A stretch of DNA of 64,000 nt from a virus: the IMG/VR virus record IMGVR_UViG_3300035670_000078, positions 37,256-101,255 of that record; one strand, given 5' to 3'. This document shows, piece by piece, positions 36,885 to 63,632 of the stretch; the first letter of the stretch is position 1, and the number at the start of each line of letters is the position of its first letter. Made by a program: the position numbers and the translations under genes. The notes beneath the pieces were generated by a model. That model saw only the letters and a list, made by a program, of their open reading frames with translations, ran no database searches and was not told the origin of the DNA.

Positions 36885-38233
36885 CTCAATGTGATGTCGT
36901 TGTAGTAGCAGACGAACTTTGTTCGTGGCGTCGCTGGGTACCGGTCAGTCTGGTCAAACTTGATGTTGCGTACGCCAGGGATGTTGATCAGCTCACCGCA
37001 GAGGCGGAAAATGAGGAGTGGTGATCCTGGGAGGACGCGAGACACGTACTCGGACGTGGCTCGTTTCACCGTGTCGAACACATCGCTGATATCGTAGCCC
37101 GGATAGACCGTAACATTGGCACTAAGCTTGAGGCTCGTAACAGTCGGAACGACGACGCGAACTCGAGAGCCTGCGGCTCGGCAGTTCGCTTCGACGTACG
37201 CTTGAAGCTCGGCGGGAAGCCCGGTGTAAACCTGATGCCCGCCTGTAGACCACTCGTCGCCTGCAGCGAGGGGCAACGACGTGGAGTTAGGCTTCGCCAG
37301 CATCACACCCCGCTCCTCGACAACAAGGAAGTCCGAGGTCGGAGCGGTGTAGGTGACACCGCTCACCGTTAGATTTGGAGCCGTTGCGGCGGGTGATTCA
37401 AAGGTGAACTGATGCCTGGCTGATGTGGAGTCGATGTCAGGAACCACACCACTTTGAGTATTAGCCGCTCGCGTGCTGCCAATAAAACCAAAGCCGTCGT
37501 CGATCAGAAGCTCGCAATATCCGCGCGTGTCTGGGTCTTCCCAGACACGCGCGTATCGGACACGTTGATCTGTGCTGGTCGGGATGTAGTTGACGGCCAG
37601 CGCCTCGATCGCTGTGTTGGTGGTGCGCGTCAGGGCATTGAGCCAAAGCTCGGCGCGTCCGCGAAGCTCATCATCAGACTCGCGCTCGGAGCCGCCACCA
37701 ACACCCACCAGATTGCGCACCTGATAAACATCAGAGGGTGCCGACAGGAGGACGTTGATAGCCCCCGGAGGGGCGTTCGTTAGCGTGCCGACGGCAACAC
37801 TTCGGACACTGATGCCCGTGGCCGTAAGGCTTGCAGCATCGAAGGTGATGGTGTCGGTGTTGACGTACCTAAGGTCAGGGGCGTCTTCTCGGCTGAACGA
37901 CAGCTCGCCAGGACCGTAGCTGACAGTGGTCCCGGACGTACTTCTCCAGAGCGTGACATTTCCACCTCGAGCAGGTCGAGGCTCACGACGCCGCTCAAAG
38001 CCTGTGGGGAGCTGAGCGATACGGTCGTCCAGCAGCTGTCCACGCGCATTAAACAGATGCGACTGGTGGAAGTCGGAGAGTTTGAACTGAACGCTCGACA
38101 TCTCGTCCGAGACCACGCCGAGAATCGAACCGAACTCGCTGCCCTCGCTGAGGTCAATCAGCCGGGACGTGGCGATGAGGCGCGTGAGCATCCGGCGCCG
38201 GATCTCATCGGGGTACTCAGGGGTGAACGGCAT
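36881..38233 (-). CDS. baseplate J/gp47-like wedge protein
   Basis: DLSEGS, GGGSERESDDELRGR, RAAG. Confidence 0.85.
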   Translation of the reverse strand: MPFTPEYPDEIRRRMLTRLIATSRLIDLSEGSEFGSILGVVSDEMSSVQFKLSDFHQSHLFNARGQLLDDRIAQLPTGFERRREPRPARGGNVTLWRSTSGTTVSYGPGELSFSREDAPDLRYVNTDTITFDAASLTATGISVRSVAVGTLTNAPPGAINVLLSAPSDVYQVRNLVGVGGGSERESDDELRGRAELWLNALTRTTNTAIEALAVNYIPTSTDQRVRYARVWEDPDTRGYCELLIDDGFGFIGSTRAANTQSGVVPDIDSTSARHQFTFESPAATAPNLTVSGVTYTAPTSDFLVVEERGVMLAKPNSTSLPLAAGDEWSTGGHQVYTGLPAELQAYVEANCRAAGSRVRVVVPTVTSLKLSANVTVYPGYDISDVFDTVKRATSEYVSRVLPGSPLLIFRLCGELINIPGVRNIKFDQTDRYPATPRTKFVCYYNDITLR

Positions 38234-54711: not shown

Positions 54712-56205
54712 TCAAGCGTAGCCGACGTTGTCCAGGATCCAGTGCTTCTGGGGAACGCCCATTTTGAGCGCGCCGAAGAGCATGATCATGAACTGGGTCG
54801 TGGCGCTGCGCGACACGGTGATCGGGCGGCGGGTGAGGTCAAGGAAGTTGACCCACTCCATGCAGTCGCGGCGGTTGGTGAGGATGTACACCGGCGACTT
54901 CTGCGGGCGGTGCTCGTTGATCTCGTCGAAGCGGGTGTGGGTACCCGAGGCAACGAGGTTGCGAGCAAAGCGGCCGACGAACCAGTACTCGTTCTGGTCA
55001 GCCGGGGCGCCAGCGCCCGTCGCAACGTCAGCGCGGAAGACGTTGTAGTAACGGATCGAGTTCGTGCCGTAGGAGGGCACGCCCGCGTCGTTGATGGTGA
55101 AGCGGCTGGAACCGCCCGCCGCCGAGTGCGAAACCGCCGCCGAAGCCGCGAAGTTGACCGCGCCCTCGTCGCCGATGCCTTCGACGATGTAGTGGAAGTC
55201 CTTGCCCGTCACGTCGGCGGTCTTGAACTTCGAGCCGGTGACCGACGCCTGGTAGGCGATGGACGGCGCGATGACAGCCGGAGCGCCGTCGCCCTCGGGG
55301 CGCGAGATCGGGTGCTCGCGGTGCGAGAGGAAGGGGATCGACAGGATGGGGATATTCCCGTGAGCCGTCGAGACGAAGAGCTTGCCGACGCCGCCGTAGA
55401 TGTCGCGCTGCTGCGAGATCTCCATACGGCCGTACTTGCTGAGCATCTGGTTCTGGAGGTTCGTCCACACGCGGTGGTCGCACCAGATCTCAGTGGGCTT
55501 CGCGTAGTACGGAGGATTGGTCATACGACCAATGATCTCCTGAAGCTCCTCGAGGGAGGTCACGGAGCCTTCGGCATCGCGGAAGTTCGACGGAGCGCCG
55601 GAGCGGATCGACTTGTAGATACCGTCGTACTCGAGCGGGTTGATGGACGAGTCGCCGTGGAAGAGGAAGGACTCCATCTTCTGGACGAGTTCCATCATGC
55701 CGTCCATCGAGGCGATCGAGATCGCCTGGGGCGACGGGTGCATCATGCCGGTCATCGACGCGACGTCGGTGATCTGGCGGAAGGTCGCGGCGTACTTGAC
55801 GCGGACAACCTTACGCTCGAACGACGACTCGCTGATGGCGGGGACGCCACCTTCGCGGACGAACGGGTTCAGCGCTGCCGAGCCGTAGCTGCGGCGAACG
55901 TTGTACTCGTGCATCGGGGACGAAGCCGAGGTCTTGGCGAGGAGCTTCCAAGCGACAATGTGCTCATCGTCGAAGGTCGCGTTGTCCAGCATGGGCTGGA
56001 TGGACTGGGGAACGAGCGGGGCGAACTCGCCGCCGGGGAGCGTGCCACTGTCGTAGCCAACGCCCTGGAGCGGGTAGTTCACACCACCCTTACGGAGGCC
56101 AAGCATCGCCGCCGAGCGGAGAGCCTGGTTGAGCTTACGAAGCTCGCCGACGCTGGCGTCAAAGCCTTCCGGCGGCAGCCCTGCGAGAAGATCCTGAGGA
56201 ATCAT
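54712..56205 (-). CDS. major capsid protein (SPO1/A511-like)
   Basis: 497 aa, strongest codon bias, PQSI..HEYN..FVREGG..VKY..E..LFHGD..LEYDGI; follows protease and scaffold. Confidence 0.9.
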   Translation of the reverse strand: MIPQDLLAGLPPEGFDASVGELRKLNQALRSAAMLGLRKGGVNYPLQGVGYDSGTLPGGEFAPLVPQSIQPMLDNATFDDEHIVAWKLLAKTSASSPMHEYNVRRSYGSAALNPFVREGGVPAISESSFERKVVRVKYAATFRQITDVASMTGMMHPSPQAISIASMDGMMELVQKMESFLFHGDSSINPLEYDGIYKSIRSGAPSNFRDAEGSVTSLEELQEIIGRMTNPPYYAKPTEIWCDHRVWTNLQNQMLSKYGRMEISQQRDIYGGVGKLFVSTAHGNIPILSIPFLSHREHPISRPEGDGAPAVIAPSIAYQASVTGSKFKTADVTGKDFHYIVEGIGDEGAVNFAASAAVSHSAAGGSSRFTINDAGVPSYGTNSIRYYNVFRADVATGAGAPADQNEYWFVGRFARNLVASGTHTRFDEINEHRPQKSPVYILTNRRDCMEWVNFLDLTRRPITVSRSATTQFMIMLFGALKMGVPQKHWILDNVGYA

Positions 56206-56236: not shown

Positions 56237-56989
56237 TCAGGCCTGAAGCCCGAGGTTGTAGCGGGTGTTGACGTCGCTCGGGAGCGCGCCGGAGAAGATC
56301 TCACCAAGCGCGAAGCGAAGCTCCTGCTTGCGGTCCTCAGCGGTGCCACCCTTGGCGATGTTCTCGTTGCAGAACTGCTCGACCTTGGTGAAGAGAGCAA
56401 GCTCGCGGTCAACTTCGATGTTGCCGGTGGCCTGCGCAACGACACCGTCAGCCGCGCCGCGAGCCGCCTCAGCGGGGTGCGGGACGACGGCGGTCGCCTG
56501 GGTCGACTTCGGGCCGCCCTTCGTGATGGCCTCAAGGCCCTTACGAAGCTCGGCAACAGTGTTGGTCAGCTCTGCATTGCGGCGGTCCATCTCGGCGAGG
56601 GTCGTGAGGACCGTCTTCTCGATGTTGCCGAGGGCGGTGAGACCCTTGACGAGCTGGGTGTAGTGGCGGTCCGACTGAGCCGAGAGCGCCGAGACCGAAG
56701 CCTCAATGTCAACGAGAGCCGACGCGCTGTCGACGTCCTCGTTGCCAACGAAGCGGGAGCCGCCCTTGACGATCTTGGCCGGGGCTGCGGGGGCAACCTC
56801 AGCGACAAAGGACTTGGCCAGTTCGTCGATGAGCTTGCTCATCTCGGCCTGACCGATAATGGGAGCCGCGCCGAGGTCGTCCTCGAGCTGGCCCTTGTGG
56901 ATCTTCTCGACGCAGATGGCTCGGGCTTCATCGTCGCCGAGCGTCGGAAGGAGCTTCTGAAACAGCTCGCTCGCCTTTCCCTTGATCAT
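56237..56989 (-). CDS. scaffolding-like protein
   Basis: Lies between protease and MCP; coiled coil; many hydrophobic-x-K-[GS] motifs. Confidence 0.7.
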   Translation of the reverse strand: MIKGKASELFQKLLPTLGDDEARAICVEKIHKGQLEDDLGAAPIIGQAEMSKLIDELAKSFVAEVAPAAPAKIVKGGSRFVGNEDVDSASALVDIEASVSALSAQSDRHYTQLVKGLTALGNIEKTVLTTLAEMDRRNAELTNTVAELRKGLEAITKGGPKSTQATAVVPHPAEAARGAADGVVAQATGNIEVDRELALFTKVEQFCNENIAKGGTAEDRKQELRFALGEIFSGALPSDVNTRYNLGLQA

Positions 56990-57861
56990 GGTTTTCCTGC
57001 CTTGTTTTGGGGTCCGACGCGAAGGCCCTTCGCCGTCAGGGACTGAACGATATAATCGAAAACACTTTCTGCCTGTGACCAGGTAAGTTCCTGCGACCAG
57101 GTCTTGGCGATTTGCATCACCAATTTCTCGCGATCAATTGATTGGGCACCTTGAAGAGACTGCGCAACCAATGGAGCAATCTCACCAACGTAGCCGGCAC
57201 CCTGCATGGGATAACCAACCTGCGCTTTGGTGATGGTTGCACCATTAGCTGACATCATCATGGGCTCCCACCAAGAGTCATGATTTCTTGGAGCAGCGGT
57301 AACCGCAAGCCACTTTACGCGGCCTTTTGCGATACGCTTCCCGACGCGCTGCTTGACGCCGCCCTCGATGGAAAATCCAATCGAGCGCTGGGCACCAGCC
57401 CGCTTCATAACTCTGGCTTTCTTGTAAGTGACGCGGCCCATCTTATCTTCAAGATAGAGGTCAGCGACGACCTTAGTCGCCTTGACCATCTGCCCCGTGA
57501 TCGCCGACTTGATCTCAGTCAGCTCAATGCCCACCGGGTAGCCGATGGTATTGACCACTCCGACGGGATGCTCAAGCAAAATCAGCCCGTGGCCCTTTTG
57601 CCCGCCCTTACCGATGAAGTAATCCCACTCGAGACCTTCCTGATCGACGATGTCACCATCCTCGTCAGGCGCCTCAGACGTGGCGATTCCAGAAATGCGG
57701 CCAAGCCTCGGCTTGGTCTTAGTCCCCTTGGAAAAACCTTCGATCGTTACCGAGGCCGGCGTCCAAAGACGGAACCGGTCCTCGTCAAGAAAGATCGAAG
57801 AGTCAAACCCGGAGGAAAGACCGCCGAAGCTAACAAGCTGTGGTTGTGCAGCAGTGTTCAC
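56986..57861 (-). CDS. prohead maturation protease
   Basis: GIATSEAPDEDGDIVDQEGL, LLEH, GFSIEG, AVTAAPRN. Confidence 0.85.
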   Translation of the reverse strand: MNTAAQPQLVSFGGLSSGFDSSIFLDEDRFRLWTPASVTIEGFSKGTKTKPRLGRISGIATSEAPDEDGDIVDQEGLEWDYFIGKGGQKGHGLILLEHPVGVVNTIGYPVGIELTEIKSAITGQMVKATKVVADLYLEDKMGRVTYKKARVMKRAGAQRSIGFSIEGGVKQRVGKRIAKGRVKWLAVTAAPRNHDSWWEPMMMSANGATITKAQVGYPMQGAGYVGEIAPLVAQSLQGAQSIDREKLVMQIAKTWSQELTWSQAESVFDYIVQSLTAKGLRVGPQNKAGKP

Positions 57862-57908: not shown

Positions 57909-59366
57909 TCAATTACCAACTACAGCCTTAGCGTCATCTTCCGTATCAGCTTGCTGGTTGGCGAGCTGATCTTGGATGTAGGCGGTGTAGAGGGCATTGA
58001 GAGGACGCTTCGAGACCGGGTCATCCCAGGGCTCGAGGCCGCGCTCAAGACGAAGCTCGTTCGGTGAGAGGAACGAGGAGACCGCCTTGAGGTCCAGCTC
58101 GATCTTCTTCTCTTCCGTGACCGCATCAAAGCCTCGGAAGGTGAGCCGGTATCCAGGCCAGTGAGGAGCAATGAGGAACTCATTGATCCAGCGCTGGATA
58201 GTCCGCATGAGCGGACGAAGGCCACGCTCCTTAGAGGCGATAATCCGATCAGTCGGAGAAGCCGAGCCAACCTGCGTCCTCTGGTTCTCCGTTCCGAAGA
58301 TGTCGCCCAGCTCGGCGGGGTCCATCTGGAACAGAGAGCACAGCTGCTTCTTCAGGAAGTTAATCCACTCGGAGAACTCCATCTCCTTGTTGGTCGATCC
58401 GAGAGGGTGGACCTTCAAGTATTCTTGGAGCGCCGGATTAACCTGGAAGAGCGGCGTGCGACGCGAATGTCGGATACCGGAGGTGGAGACCTCGATAACC
58501 CGCTGAAGCGTCGACATGCGGTCATCGGAGCCGATGATACCGGCCTCGATCAGGTTCTGGGAGTGGATACCCGTCGTGTAGTTGACGGTGTTGTGCGTGA
58601 TGGCGTTGACGAGGGCGGCCACGATGGAGACCGCCTTCTCAAGCTCAGGAGCGCCGTAGCCATTCCGATACATGAAGGTCTCGCGGTTGCGGATCCACCA
58701 TGACATCGTGTCGGGCGAGAACTCATTGACGATGCGGTTGTTGAGGACCTGGATATATCCGGTGTCCCGGATATCCCAGCGCATGTCTTTGATCTGGCTA
58801 CGGTCGGGAGCCTTCCGTCGCATCGTGGTCGGATCGGCGGGAACGAAGGCGCCGGGCTTGCCGGTCGTCACGTTCATCACCTTTTCCACGTTGACCTGAT
58901 CATACACGAGCGTGTCGTGAACGATCGCTCGGAGGAACGACTCGAACCCACCGGGGAAATAGGTGCCACCGCCGTTCAGGATGAACTCCTGAATCTCAGC
59001 GATGGTGGACCTATCCCGGCGAGTCAGGACGCGCTTCTTGTCATCGGGAGTGATGACATGGCCGAGGCTGTACGGATCAGGCTGCTGAACAGCGAAGTCA
59101 GAAGCCTGATTCATACGGGTCAGCAGGATCGCCGCGATATACGGGATGCGGGACATCGCCCGCAGCGTCGTATACGAGAGGATGCCCGTACCTTGATGGA
59201 TGTCCGACGGGAACATCGACTGGGCGGTGAGCCACATTGAGCTCATCGGGTCGAGGTTCGCCGCCTTAGGCGACGCCAAGCGCACTTCCCCGCCGGGCTT
59301 CAGTAGCTCCTTAGGGAGATCGCCCTTGGCGATGGTCTCAGAGCTGTCGGCGGTTTTGTCTGTCAC
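57909..59366 (-). CDS. portal protein
   Basis: DTLVYDQ, DPTTMR, NGYGAPELE, KEMEFSEW..LFQMDPAELG, SKERGLRPL, PNELR. Confidence 0.92.
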   Translation of the reverse strand: MTDKTADSSETIAKGDLPKELLKPGGEVRLASPKAANLDPMSSMWLTAQSMFPSDIHQGTGILSYTTLRAMSRIPYIAAILLTRMNQASDFAVQQPDPYSLGHVITPDDKKRVLTRRDRSTIAEIQEFILNGGGTYFPGGFESFLRAIVHDTLVYDQVNVEKVMNVTTGKPGAFVPADPTTMRRKAPDRSQIKDMRWDIRDTGYIQVLNNRIVNEFSPDTMSWWIRNRETFMYRNGYGAPELEKAVSIVAALVNAITHNTVNYTTGIHSQNLIEAGIIGSDDRMSTLQRVIEVSTSGIRHSRRTPLFQVNPALQEYLKVHPLGSTNKEMEFSEWINFLKKQLCSLFQMDPAELGDIFGTENQRTQVGSASPTDRIIASKERGLRPLMRTIQRWINEFLIAPHWPGYRLTFRGFDAVTEEKKIELDLKAVSSFLSPNELRLERGLEPWDDPVSKRPLNALYTAYIQDQLANQQADTEDDAKAVVGN

Positions 59367-62300
59367 GAGAGCTTACCTTTGACGTCCACGTAGCGAGCGC
59401 GGAGAGCGAGGGGTCCCTTCGCCATGCGAAGGTAGTGGGCTTGGCTTCGGACTGAGGCGGGGGCGAAGGCTAGGTCCTCGGCGAAGTCTGAGAAGTCACC
59501 AACTGACTCCTTGATATATTCATCAAGTTCGTTGGTCGGCACAAGACCTTTCGCAAGCCAAGCGTCGAGAGGGTCGATCGCCGACTTACCGGTCTCGACG
59601 AGACCGGCGACAGCCATGTTGGCCTTCTTGATCTCGTCCTTGCTCACCTCGGGCTCAGCCTTCTCCACCTTCTTGCCCGTGGCATCGGCAAGCATGGACT
59701 GAGCGCGCTTCCTAATCCCAGCCTTCACCGAGTCGGGGATCTGGGTACCCTCGAGGCGGGCGAGAGCGTTGCGGAGGTGAGGGAGGTCAACCTTTCCGTT
59801 CTTGTCCTTATAAGGAAGGTGACGGAGCGACCGGGGCGTGGTCTTGCCCTCACCATCCTTCTTTCCGCCGGACTCGACGTAGAGGAAGGCAGAGTCGGGC
59901 AGGTCGTTGACATAGGCGGTCGTCCAGACAGCCTTGCGCACCGGCTCGATCTCGTTGTCCTCCTCGGCAAGCTTGAGGACCTCGTTGTAGTCGCGGTTGA
60001 GAACCGCAACGCTCATGGCCTTCATCACGTCGTCGCTAAGCTCGCCAGCCTTCGACCGGCGAAGAGCGTTGACGTAAGCAGCCTGAGCCTGCGCACGGAT
60101 AAGCTCGTGCTCGGGCTGCTTGGTTCCCCAGTCAGCAAGCTCGACGGAGGACTTCACGACCTTTTCCTTATGGCGCCACTGCTTACACGACCAGTACTTG
60201 GCGGTGAGGATGTCCTTGCCCGCTGCCGTGTCGCAGCCGTGGCGGCTGCGGAAATTCTTGCGGCGCTCGGGATCGTCGCGGCGGATTTCCATGTTGGCGT
60301 CGCCAAACCGGATCACGCGCGTCTTGCCCTGAGCGTTGCGAGCGTTGACGACAAACTTCTTCTTGCCGTAGCCGGGCTCACCCTGACGGATGCGGCGGGG
60401 CTTGTTGTAGTCGTCGGGGATGCTGTCAGCCTTCACGACATCGACGTGGGTCGTCATGTCGGTGGCCTTGATGATCGACGGCTCGTTGACCGAATCGTCC
60501 TCCCACTCCTCGCAATCCTCGCAGCCTTCGCACTCAGCGCAGTCACCTTCCGTCTCAAGGAAGGGCTGGTGGTACTCGAGGAGCATCTTCTGGAGCTGAT
60601 CGATACCGAGGCTGCCACGGCGGCCGGTCCCATCGTGCGCGACGTGAAGCATCTGCCCGACGCGATCCTCGATGGAGACAAAGCCGTCGACGAACTTCTC
60701 GCCCGTGTGGATCGGGCAGTGGAACTTCACGCCCGGCGTCACGATGTTGGCGAAGTGGTCGCTCTCGACAAGCGAGAGGAACGCCGTCTTGTCGTAGACG
60801 TAGCGCGCCCGATTATCCCCGCGAGCCGGGGACAGCCGTGCGAGGAACTGGCCGCCCTTCTCGATCGCGTCGTCCAGCACCGCTGCCTTTGAAGACAGCG
60901 AGTTCTGGCCAGGCGTGGTCGACTTCTGTACAGCAGTCGCCGTCGTGAAGCTTGACGTCGGCAGATCGCTTGAAGTTGTAAGAGTCTGAACAGGAGAGGA
61001 TTTCTCGGCCTCGGTCGGAGAGCATGTCTGGGTTCCTTTATTGATCTTGTGCTTCTTTGACTGAAGCGTCTGAAGGATGCGCTGGATATCTGACTCGCGG
61101 CCCTCGATCGTGCCGTAAGCCTTTCGAACGGTCATCTCAGCGCGCTTGAGGTCCTCGGGGTCCGTCACGTCGCGCTCATCCCGCTTGATCTCAGCGCGGA
61201 TCTGCTCCTTCGGGTTTGCGGTCGAGTACGGGTCGGCGGCGCGCTTGAGGTCCTCGAAAGCCTTCGGGAACGCCTTGGCAGCCCCGAGATTCTCGAGGTA
61301 ACCCATCGCGATGCCAGGCGGGCAGTACGACATACCCTCAGGGCAGGGAGGATGGCCGAACTGGCGGGCGACCTTATCGGAGGCCTTGCGCACGCAAGCA
61401 GCTGCCTTGGCCATACCGTCGTTGGCGATGTCGAACTTAGGCGTCTTCGACAGATAATCGGCGCACATGATGGCCGCATTGGCGTGCATCATGGTCTCGC
61501 CATCGAAATGACCGACGCCGGCCTTCTTGATGAGCTTCTTAACCTGCGAGGGCTTGGCGTTGAAGAGCCTTCCCTCACCGGATTGACGCCGAGAAGCGAC
61601 GTGCTCAGCGACAACGGGCTCATGAACCGAGGCCATGTAGGCGTGCCCACGAGGGTGGGCGAACATGAAGTGGGCTTTGTCAGGGTGCTCGACGTCTTCC
61701 GTCGAGCCTCCCTTCTGCAACCCGGCCGTCGAACGGAGGAACCAAGCCGCTTTGTCGTGGTCAGCGGCCCGCTTGCCGAGGATATCGACCGTTCCGGCGT
61801 CATTTTCGGCCTCAGCGGCCTCGACACCCTGCTCGCAAAGCTCACAAAGCTGCTCATGGGCCGCGATCAGCTCGACCAACATGCCCTGAGCGTCGGCCGG
61901 CATGGCTCGAGGCTCGATCGAAACCTCATCGACGACGATTTGGAAGCCGCGAATGCGCTCGGCGAGCAGGTCAACGGCGTCAGCGAGGTCATCGTACTGG
62001 TCGCCGAAGAGCACATGGAGCTGCGGGAAGGTCGGGCCGGTCACGTTCCAGTGGAAAGACTGGGTGCGGTCGCGCAGAGCGATCGACGCGGTGAGGATTT
62101 CGCGCAGCTTGTCGGTCGTCTGGCCCTTAAAGAGGTCAGGATTGCCCGACTTCTTCATCTTACGGGCAACGTGGGTGGCCTCGGGGTGCAGCGCCAGCAC
62201 GTTATTGACGGGGTGACCGGTCTTCAGATGCACCAGCGCGGCCATGGCGGCTTCGCGGTCGGGGCTATCGGACTTGCAGCACTCAGCGAGGTACTCCTGA

Positions 62301-62704
62301 GCCTTCGCCATGGCGTCAGCGGCGCCCTTGGTGTCGTCATGGACCTTGGAATAACGGTTCCAATGGAACCGCTTGGTGTAGGAGCGGCGATCGCTGCCCT
62401 TATCATCCTTCCACATCAGCACGGGCTTCTTATCGATATCGCCCTCGGCGTCGATATCCACATGCTGGGGATGGGTTTCCTTCGACGGCTTATGGCCATC
62501 GAGGTCGTATTGAGCCTGCGCCTTCATCCAGGCATCGCCATCCTGACCTTTTTCAAAGTCGGGGGCGGCGCCTTTGGGGGCGGCAGTACCAACGGAGTTT
62601 ACGCCGTCCTTCACCTGGGTCCACTCCTTAGATGTGGAGGTGGGTTTCTCCCAGACGGAGCCATCGGCGCGCTGACGAACTGTACCTGCGGGATCTGCTT
62701 TCAT
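59363..62704 (-). CDS. 1113-aa multidomain putative capsid-internal polyprotein (degenerate TopoIB-like, Dps, DUF6321-like, DLPDSAF modules)
   Basis: Single ORF, GTGA-coupled to the portal; domain motifs recognised by eye (see findings). Confidence 0.8.
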   Translation of the reverse strand: MKADPAGTVRQRADGSVWEKPTSTSKEWTQVKDGVNSVGTAAPKGAAPDFEKGQDGDAWMKAQAQYDLDGHKPSKETHPQHVDIDAEGDIDKKPVLMWKDDKGSDRRSYTKRFHWNRYSKVHDDTKGAADAMAKAQEYLAECCKSDSPDREAAMAALVHLKTGHPVNNVLALHPEATHVARKMKKSGNPDLFKGQTTDKLREILTASIALRDRTQSFHWNVTGPTFPQLHVLFGDQYDDLADAVDLLAERIRGFQIVVDEVSIEPRAMPADAQGMLVELIAAHEQLCELCEQGVEAAEAENDAGTVDILGKRAADHDKAAWFLRSTAGLQKGGSTEDVEHPDKAHFMFAHPRGHAYMASVHEPVVAEHVASRRQSGEGRLFNAKPSQVKKLIKKAGVGHFDGETMMHANAAIMCADYLSKTPKFDIANDGMAKAAACVRKASDKVARQFGHPPCPEGMSYCPPGIAMGYLENLGAAKAFPKAFEDLKRAADPYSTANPKEQIRAEIKRDERDVTDPEDLKRAEMTVRKAYGTIEGRESDIQRILQTLQSKKHKINKGTQTCSPTEAEKSSPVQTLTTSSDLPTSSFTTATAVQKSTTPGQNSLSSKAAVLDDAIEKGGQFLARLSPARGDNRARYVYDKTAFLSLVESDHFANIVTPGVKFHCPIHTGEKFVDGFVSIEDRVGQMLHVAHDGTGRRGSLGIDQLQKMLLEYHQPFLETEGDCAECEGCEDCEEWEDDSVNEPSIIKATDMTTHVDVVKADSIPDDYNKPRRIRQGEPGYGKKKFVVNARNAQGKTRVIRFGDANMEIRRDDPERRKNFRSRHGCDTAAGKDILTAKYWSCKQWRHKEKVVKSSVELADWGTKQPEHELIRAQAQAAYVNALRRSKAGELSDDVMKAMSVAVLNRDYNEVLKLAEEDNEIEPVRKAVWTTAYVNDLPDSAFLYVESGGKKDGEGKTTPRSLRHLPYKDKNGKVDLPHLRNALARLEGTQIPDSVKAGIRKRAQSMLADATGKKVEKAEPEVSKDEIKKANMAVAGLVETGKSAIDPLDAWLAKGLVPTNELDEYIKESVGDFSDFAEDLAFAPASVRSQAHYLRMAKGPLALRARYVDVKGKLS
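61712..62125 (-). other. dps: Dps/ferritin-like domain within the polyprotein (aa 194-331)
   Basis: FHWNVTGPTFPQLHVLF...VDLLAERI...DAGTVD...HDKAAWFLRS. Confidence 0.9.
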
Positions 62705-62732: not shown

Positions 62733-63524
62733 TTAGTCCACCTGTTGCGCCTGAACGATTTGAAAAACGTCCCAGATCAGTTTGAAAATATCAACCTGAT
62801 ATTCAAAGACTGTAACAGCGTCGGGACCATTTTCGCACAGCTCGATCGTGGCGGCCGGACCATTCATCGGACCGTTGACGGCGAGGGAGTCAAACCCGCT
62901 CACCCAGACCAGCGTCCAGCTATCATTAAGAAGCATGAGGCGCGGCTGCGGCAGCTGCGGGAAAACCTCGCGCAGCTGCCGCATCAGGGGGCGGATGATA
63001 TTCACCAGCAAAGCATCCCGGACCGGATCGGTGCGCGCCCGGCGGCGCTTCTTGGGCAGCGGCTTTTTGGCGGGCGGGACCAGGGCGGCCGGCTCGCGCT
63101 CATCATGCGGGGCATGGGCGGCCCAAACCACATCCTCATATGAAGATACCTGGATGGGATCGAGATAGACCTTCTCCCCATACCAACGGCAAACGGCCAC
63201 ATGAACGATCCGCCACGCCTCAAGCTCATGCAGATGCGGGGGGATATCCTTCAGATGCGTTTGCCCCACATGCTGGCGAAGCCACCGAAGGGGATTGGAC
63301 GCCAACCGCCGAAGCTCCCCATCGGTGAGCATCGTGGGGGTATTGGGCCATTTATGCTTCCGGCCCTCCCGCCGCTCCTCGCGATGGCAAATATTGCAGA
63401 GCCCCCGGCTGTTGTAAAAACGCCCCGGCTTCCCCAGACCGCATTTGCGGCAAACGGGGCAATAGACGGGGAAAGGCCGACCGCCCAGATACGCGCCGCT
63501 CTTCCTCGCCTTCGAAACGCCCAT
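62733..63524 (-). CDS. hypothetical Zn-finger-containing basic protein
   Basis: CPVCRKC...GLCNIC; start uncertain (ATG 63524 or GTG 63560). Confidence 0.55.
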   Translation of the reverse strand: MGVSKARKSGAYLGGRPFPVYCPVCRKCGLGKPGRFYNSRGLCNICHREERREGRKHKWPNTPTMLTDGELRRLASNPLRWLRQHVGQTHLKDIPPHLHELEAWRIVHVAVCRWYGEKVYLDPIQVSSYEDVVWAAHAPHDEREPAALVPPAKKPLPKKRRRARTDPVRDALLVNIIRPLMRQLREVFPQLPQPRLMLLNDSWTLVWVSGFDSLAVNGPMNGPAATIELCENGPDAVTVFEYQVDIFKLIWDVFQIVQAQQVD

Positions 63525-63632
63525 GGGCGTTAGGGTGGCACGGGCGGGCGGAAAGCACAAGGAAACGGAAACAAGGCACCCCCACTAGGGCGAAGCCAAA
63601 AACGCGCACCCGCCCGGAGGGCAGGTGACCCG

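Follow-up and report, generated by a model that had tools for sequence, protein, structure and literature searches.

A candidate capsid-internal polyprotein with a Dps module and a putative lysine cleavage motif in an uncultured phage with an SPO1/A511-like head

What is a protein of 1113 amino acids (aa), made together with the portal of a tailed phage and carrying a mini-ferritin among several other modules, doing in a head operon? The question is raised by an open reading frame (P0001) at 59363..62704, on the minus strand of the 64,000 nucleotides (the window) that cover positions 37,256 to 101,255 of the IMG/VR virus record IMGVR_UViG_3300035670_000078. On a single contig of 101,255 bp (G+C 58.5%), the window is the 64 kb at the right-hand end. 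The frame of 1113 codons is unbroken, with a G+C content at third codon positions of 0.77, high as in the adjacent genes. Its TGA stop overlaps the GTG start of the portal gene (57909..59366, minus strand) in the form GTGA, in agreement with a preliminary description of the sequence that had placed the gene in the head operon and coupled it to the portal. We consider it likely that the product is a capsid-internal polyprotein, which the adjacent prohead serine protease of the Herelleviridae type would cut after lysine and so free its modules.

A short motif recurs along the chain. We counted [VILMF]-x-K-[AGS], i.e. a hydrophobic residue at P3, lysine at P1 and Ala, Gly or Ser at P1', against residue shuffles of each protein, with genes called over the whole contig. 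The polyprotein holds 22 copies where 5.06 are expected (p<0.001), the 250-aa protein in the scaffold position (56237..56989, minus strand) 8 against 1.27 (p<0.001), and the prohead (head maturation) protease (56986..57861, minus strand) 5 against 1.59 (p=0.013). No other contig protein of at least 100 aa, Lys-rich ones included, has a significant excess, and the other 75 proteins pooled contain 77 motifs against 66.2 expected. The preliminary description had claimed that the motif is shared among the head proteins; every site that it listed is present, the scaffold has eight instead of "about seven", and in the comparison of head with other proteins the excess is found only in the polyprotein, the scaffold and the protease.

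When the shuffles were confined to segments of 20, 40 or 80 aa, z was still about 8 for the polyprotein and 6 for the scaffold, so local composition is not the cause. Control motifs (reversed, with R, E, D or Q at P1, with shifted spacing, or with a non-hydrophobic P3) are at expectation in the polyprotein, scaffold and protease. A hydrophobic P3 precedes K[AGS] in 35 of 56 cases in these three proteins, compared with 77 of 269 elsewhere (Fisher p=4e-6). Chance as the source of the enrichment is ruled out by the shuffle statistics.

The sites of the polyprotein are K52, K134, K185, K193, K331, K394, K433, K440, K481, K528, K556, K594, K616, K746, K758, K851, K895, K924, K1015, K1027, K1052 and K1096. 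Seven of the eight scaffold sites are K|G, and cutting at all of them would give predicted fragments of 3-56 aa. The protease carries FSK45|G, ITK212|A and three more, the portal has IAK14|G near its N-terminus, and the major capsid protein (54712..56205, minus strand) has LRK39|G. In a tally of 36 sites (34 of the 35 in the polyprotein, scaffold and protease, plus K39 of the capsid protein and K14 of the portal), P3 is I, V, L, M or F and P1' is G in 18, A in 14 and S in 4.

The enrichment is kept in homologues of the polyprotein (P0002-P0012), both close (74-76% identity, 1119-1244 aa) and distant (23-52%), and in 13 of 16 further, more distant family representatives that were found by an exhaustive profile-free search. 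Nine loci with flanking genes share the gene order (L001, L030, L033, L034, L035, L040, L042, L045 and, more weakly, L031), and there only the polyprotein, scaffold and protease, at times also the portal, have an excess of the motif. Individual sites are conserved as well. K193, K331, K528, K556, K616, K851, K1052 and K1096 are retained at 30-40% identity, and all 24 aligned family members have a site in the loop before a conserved HPD hairpin.

One lineage carries a different residue at P1. In locus L032 (69% G+C) the Lys motif is at expectation, and h-x-R-[AGS], where h is hydrophobic, is enriched instead in the polyprotein (11 vs 4.0 expected), the portal (7 vs 2.3), a protease-Dps fusion (7 vs 2.3) and the scaffold (6 vs 1.1). 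The neck and tail proteins of L032 show no enrichment of this motif. The capsid site has changed in the same way, reading ITR|SGVNYPLQG in L032 and LRK|GGVNYPLQG in the window phage. If one protease reads one code, P1 should change in concert in all the head-internal proteins of a lineage, as it does here. Among the family representatives the Arg type is found in P0055 (12 vs 4.0, p<0.001) and P0056 (9 vs 4.9, p=0.066); P0055 and the L032 polyprotein are equal in length and probably the same protein. A Gln motif (VAQ|S, ITQ|S) occurs 6 times in P0052 against 2.0 expected, which is marginal (P=0.017, uncorrected), and this protein may use a Gln code. No useful loci were found in scans for P0056 and P0052, and the co-variation of K to R comes from the single lineage with full context, L032.

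If the motif marks cleavage sites, it should be found where one module ends and the next begins. The modules most easily recognised are a Dps mini-ferritin (residues 194-331, 61712..62125), bracketed by LFK193|G and LQK331|G, a basic module similar to DUF6321 (phrog_7595; residues 759-851, 60152..60430), bracketed by VVK758|A and VVK851|S, and a DLPDSAF module (residues 925-1015, 59660..59932), bracketed by VRK924|A and VEK1015|A, all on the minus strand. Module borders were set by BLAST segments against rearranged homologues, independently of the motif. Six of the seven junctions defined in this way carry a site within 3 residues (P about 0.002 for random positions, 0.01 among lysines), as expected from the earlier claim that domain boundaries and motif coincide.

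In the homologous loci, modules are lost, relocated and exchanged at the sites, the domain swapping that had been anticipated. P0008-10 lack Dps, which is cut out exactly between the sites (breakpoints at 181 and 328). The DUF6321-like module (81% identical) has been relocated behind Dps in P0006 and is bracketed there by VAK352|G and VAK444|G, while in P0011 the DLPDSAF module (72% identical) lies between LEK219|A and IEK310|A. These two modules are relocated with their flanking sites in P0006, P0011 and P0012. Of 25 family members, 5 have an InPase domain (PF18823), and in one of these, P0060, it takes the place of Dps, between IEK191|S and IAK334|S. In these comparisons the sites double as recombination joints, as in a cassette that evolves by exchange of modules.

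Recombination at short shared linkers could by itself spread a common junction peptide, and the motif could then be linker composition or a recombination scar in a polyvalent ejection protein that is delivered whole, like the virion RNA polymerase of N4. Many polyvalent proteins are indeed transferred unprocessed (PMC5512222). However, an uncleaved protein leaves unexplained why the same motif is found in the scaffold, the protease, the portal N-terminus and the N-arm of the capsid protein, why all of these changed from K to R together in L032, and why reversed and shifted motifs are not enriched. We regard it as improbable.

Which enzyme would read the code? The protease (phrog_1028) is homologous to Herelleviridae proteases, and the capsid protein (phrog_752) is of the SPO1/A511 type. 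The best matches of the portal (PF04860, phrog_12), the protease and the capsid protein are all from Herelleviridae, at 21-31% identity, and nothing closer was found among 50,697 phage records. In the A511 record the mature capsid protein (Cps) is annotated from Ser24, after ALK23|S, which bears out the statement that a capsid protein of this type is matured after Lys. The aligned offset places this K23|S within a few residues of K39 in the capsid protein of the window, whose residues 1-39 (56089-56205) are a candidate propeptide ending in LRK39|G. Cleavage of a capsid protein after lysine is also seen in HK97, where gp5 is cut at K103|S104.

The protease contains a further hint. Its tail after ITK212|A (residues 213-240, 57142-57225) resembles the N-arm of the capsid protein after LRK39|G (residues 40-70, 55996-56088), with 20 of 48 positions identical (E=7e-6), and the same is found in L032 and L045. 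This likeness fixes the register of the K212 and K39 sites. The tail is possibly a mimic of the N-arm that docks the protease in the procapsid. As the prohead protease acts inside the assembled prohead, a polyprotein that shares its code with the scaffold and the capsid N-arm should be inside as well.

Some phages process head proteins with host proteases, the staphylococcal phage 80alpha and PrsP being an example, so the motif might be a cleavage code that is read by a host protease or by another phage enzyme and not by the adjacent prohead protease. We find this very unlikely. The protease gene is syntenic in every relative, the protease carries sites itself, one of them directly before its tail resembling the capsid protein, and its homologues in Herelleviridae accompany a capsid protein that is cut after Lys. 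A change of P1 within a phage lineage would also be easier with an enzyme that the phage encodes.

What would be released? Residues 194-331 match the Pfam family Ferritin (PF00210) with 67.3 bits against a cut-off of 24.5. The model of this region is a full four-helix bundle, and Foldseek aligns it to Dps crystal structures with E 3e-6 and a template modelling (TM) score of about 0.8 on the target. The ferroxidase ligands H218, H230, D245 and E249 are present, in the contexts FHW, LHV and DLLAE; by motif we take them to be the equivalents of H51, H63, D78 and E82 in Dps of Escherichia coli. In three loci Dps sits in the protease gene and not in the polyprotein (L031:10449-11633, L032:9755-11014, L042:9006-10205), in the order protease core, Dps, C-terminal tail. 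Whether in the polyprotein or in the protease, Dps would thus be carried by a prohead-internal vehicle, and two different ones are used.

The regions on either side of Dps belong together. Residues 53-193 (62126..62548) and 332-556 (61037..61711), both on the minus strand, contain the two halves of a fold that we recognised in P0057, a relative without Dps, which was modelled with a mean predicted local distance difference test (pLDDT) of 82.5 and a predicted TM-score of 0.71. In VIA the model obtains Z 15.4 to 2b9s_A (Leishmania), 15.3 to 3m4a_A (bacterial, root mean square deviation 3.0 over 186 residues) and 12.4 to 2h7f_X (variola), with recombinases ranking below topoisomerases, and Foldseek gives E 1.5e-4. 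According to this model, P0057 has the two-domain clamp fold of type IB topoisomerases (TopoIB) and tyrosine recombinases. In the window protein, residues ~57-190 and ~340-490 accordingly form one TopoIB-like fold, with Dps inserted in a disordered loop of it. The first half ends in this loop with MKK185|S and LFK193|G; the second half proper (343-487) is followed by helices (516-555) and INK556|G. The protein had been described as a string of unrelated small domains, which holds for several separate modules but not for these two stretches.

The family consensus TGH(164), H350, VR(406)HH and GH(451)-x8-Y(460) resembles the recombinase boxes, mapped here by motif and not by superposition. Arg406 and His408, found in most members, are replaced by M406 and A408 in the window protein, and 8 of 25 family members have F or H in place of Y460. 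Judging from these residues, the TopoIB-like domain is probably inactive in the window protein, a DNA-binding relic and not an enzyme. The fold was not detected by topoisomerase or integrase profiles in Pfam or NCBIfam, nor by a profile search of PDB sequences. There is likewise no Pfam or PHROG match to Phage_Mu_F (MuF/SPP1 gp7) in the polyprotein or its 25 relatives.

The DUF6321-like and DLPDSAF modules are modelled with low confidence. The DLPDSAF module is very widespread. Among 100 representatives it is attached to prohead proteases (S78, S78_2, Mu-I, ClpP, SDH) in 38, to a capsid protein in 1 and to a scaffold in 1. In an alignment of 100 proteins from other phages, Lys or Arg stands directly before the conserved Ala-x-Trp start of the module in 69 of 98, which suggests that its N-terminus is freed by head proteases in many unrelated phages. 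In THSA-485A the module lies between the genes in portal and capsid position. In pelagiphages and roseophages the DUF6321-like module is small and stands alone or at the N-terminus; in CRP-6 it is found just upstream of the capsid gene. Together, the partners of DLPDSAF and the InPase domain, known from virion-packaged polyvalent proteins (PMC5512222), would point to the interior of the head.

Would these modules survive maturation? The polyprotein could also be a sacrificial second scaffold or core, which helps to nucleate or size the prohead at the portal and is then chopped and expelled, its modules not being virion cargo. Its site density is like that of the scaffold, there are sites within the TopoIB-like fold (among them the conserved K394), and a weak scaffold-like stretch surrounds K1096 in the C-terminal region. 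Giant phages cut long propeptides at several sites of a motif, and most of this material does not remain in the head (PMC10052503). However, Dps keeps all four ferroxidase ligands and the full four-helix bundle, and the predicted folded pieces are 90-225 aa long compared with 3-56 aa for the scaffold fragments. Moreover, Dps, InPase, DUF6321-like and DLPDSAF modules are exchanged as intact units, at 50-80% identity, across very different phages. Such intact exchange of conserved modules indicates selection on their own activities. A purely sacrificial role is therefore unlikely in our judgement.

The reading of the protein as cleaved capsid cargo can be put as a sequence of steps. The polyprotein would be made together with the portal and built into the prohead. 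The prohead protease would then cut at hydrophobic-x-K|[G/A/S], in exposed linkers between modules, and the same code would mark the scaffold, which would be cut to short peptides, the protease itself, the portal N-terminus and K39|G in the capsid N-arm. The predicted products are Dps with an intact predicted ferroxidase site, the two halves of the probably inactive TopoIB-like DNA-binding fold, a beta-rich domain, the basic DUF6321-like module, the DLPDSAF module and helical pieces from the ends. The folded products (8-25 kDa) would remain with the DNA and might protect it, organise it or be delivered with it.

A broader and more tentative proposal, which we hold to be possible yet on balance somewhat doubtful, is that a family of uncultured phages with SPO1/A511-like heads has a cargo cassette addressed by the protease. 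Any module flanked by the P1 code of its lineage (Lys, Arg, perhaps Gln) would plug into the portal-coupled TopoIB-like carrier or into the protease and would be freed in the capsid, and the virion would carry a working Dps next to the DNA.

Several observations weigh against cleavage and packaging as set out here. About nine sites are in predicted helices (K134, K394, K433, K440, K481 and K895 among the helical ones) or inside the TopoIB-like fold; the caveat about the TopoIB-like part had been raised from the start and stands. Some of the sites embedded in helices are probably never cut. The sites are also not enriched in segments with pLDDT below 50 (10 of 22 sites vs 41 of 96 lysines), a comparison from which nothing can be learned, since these segments include two real modules. 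In the protease-Dps fusions there is no canonical site between core and Dps, only one on the C-terminal side of Dps, so release of Dps is not universal. A511 has a homologous protease and capsid protein but no polyprotein before the portal; its scaffold-position protein has no motif excess (2 vs 1.4), and its known site has Ala instead of a large hydrophobic residue at P3. What links A511 to the window phage is therefore the lysine at P1 only. A capsid-targeting element was not identified in the polyprotein. Injection of the Dps module is doubtful, as a Dps dodecamer could not pass the tail tube. Finally, all relatives of the polyprotein are metagenomic, and the system is known here from sequence alone.

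Two lines of earlier work meet in this locus. Polyvalent proteins are multi-domain proteins packaged by phages and also described for conjugative elements (Iyer, Burroughs, Anand, de Souza, Aravind 2017, PMC5512222). Iyer et al. likened them to viral polyproteins and proposed that they are released by embedded zincin or C-terminal assemblin-like peptidases (PMC5512222). The window polyprotein resembles them in its many unrelated domains per chain, its gene context of the portal/terminase type, its predicted packaging and its domain mosaicism. However, it has no embedded peptidase, and release is proposed in trans, by the prohead protease and at a motif common to the scaffold and the capsid protein. 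The content also differs, being Dps, the TopoIB-like fold, DLPDSAF and the DUF6321-like module; the words 'Dps' and 'ferritin' occur 0 times in PMC5512222. None of the catalogued polyvalent domains (MPTase, InPase, LPD, others) was found in the window polyprotein at E<=0.01.

In head proteolysis as known from T4 (gp21) and from phiKZ and SPN3US (gp175/gp245), a single prohead protease recognises a single short motif, which is present in the scaffold, capsid, portal, internal proteins and the protease itself (PMC10052503, PMC9026906). Several copies of the motif within one substrate are found there too, but the cuts follow Glu, the proteins have genes of their own, and what is removed is mostly an N-terminal propeptide. 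The window phage instead has Lys at P1 (Arg in one lineage) and a single chain of about 10 modules jointed at the sites, and its head module is SPO1/A511-like, not T4-like.

Two more distant parallels concern function. Retroviral Gag-Pol and the polyproteins of eukaryotic viruses are likewise loaded as one chain and cut by a viral protease during maturation. This is a functional analogy without homology, the window phage being a double-stranded DNA tailed phage with an HK97-fold capsid and an assemblin-type serine protease. Encapsulins with ferritin-like cargo (PMC11202242) also enclose an iron-binding protein of the ferritin superfamily in an HK97-fold shell, as the head of the window phage would. 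In encapsulins a targeting peptide at the C-terminus docks the cargo, and no proteolysis releases it, whereas here Dps is part of the polyprotein or of the protease. The system thus combines the themes of polyvalent proteins and head proteolysis, and Dps with a TopoIB-like fold in a phage head is absent from the literature that we searched.

If the cuts are real, tailed phages use a true polyprotein strategy, in which one chain is loaded once and then cut inside the particle. Capsid cargo would become predictable from sequence, and a way to address foreign proteins into phage heads suggests itself. Lys and Arg codes would join the Glu codes of T4 and the phiKZ-like phages, and the change from Lys to Arg would be a natural case in which a protease and its substrates changed their code together. 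With Dps and a TopoIB-like clamp in the head, one could ask, and test, whether there is protection against oxidation and how the packaged DNA is handled. A working Dps carried in the virion would make this the first phage capsid with a natural cargo of the ferritin type, and in function a counterpart of the encapsulins.

The remaining parts of the polyprotein, all on the minus strand, are less well defined. Five segments searched against Pfam at E<=1 gave nothing credible beyond Ferritin, and NCBIfam gave Dps only. PDB sequence searches with the segments and the family profile returned no match, the ESM Atlas gave no usable match for residues 600-745, and Foldseek with the whole 1113-aa model returned Dps alone. 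Residues 557-616 (60857..61036) are a disordered linker rich in Ser and Thr, with VQK594|S and the widely conserved IEK616|G. Residues 617-746 (60467..60856) form a beta-rich domain followed by an acidic Cys-rich element (C-x2-C-x2-C-x2-C, 722-737) and IIK746|A. Similar elements (C-x(1-2)-C-x2-C-x2-C, then runs of Glu and Asp; 60494-60541 in the window) precede the relocated small modules in several homologues (P0006 333-346, P0011 194-207, P0012 194-207) and may be portable metal-binding linkers. A small helical module (residues 852-924, 59933..60151) has VMK895|A within a predicted helix and ends at VRK924|A. The C-terminal helical region (residues 1016-1113, 59366..59659) contains IKK1027|A and the conserved LAK1052|G and MAK1096|G.

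At the other end, residues 1-52 (62549..62704) consist of a conserved N-terminal beta-hairpin element (RADGSVWxK...W) and a disordered linker that ends in FEK52|G, a site that is not conserved among relatives. In about half of the family the RADGSxWxK...W hairpin (residues 12-20, 62645-62671 in the window) is repeated near the C-terminus, for example at residue 822 of P0011 and residue 948 of P0006; the window protein does not have this second copy.

The polyprotein is encoded in a portal and virion-gene context throughout. On the same strand it is followed by the genes for the portal, the prohead protease, the scaffold-position protein and the major capsid protein, and the synteny is held in about 10 related loci. 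No relatives beyond single modules were found among the 50,697 phage records, and none at all in a search of one genome for each GTDB species. A distant relative by its capsid protein, Pseudomonas phage Dolphis, has no such polyprotein gene. Directly upstream of the polyprotein, in the window (62733..63560, minus strand) as in all relatives, is a conserved gene for a 275-aa protein, which has no Pfam, PHROG or NCBIfam match and no motif enrichment. The portal of L040, a 96-kb relative, is unusually built: it has 898 aa (L040:5616-8312), of which residues 1-343 and 741-897 match the window portal at 94% and 78%, and the insertion of about 400 aa between the matching parts may be an intein.

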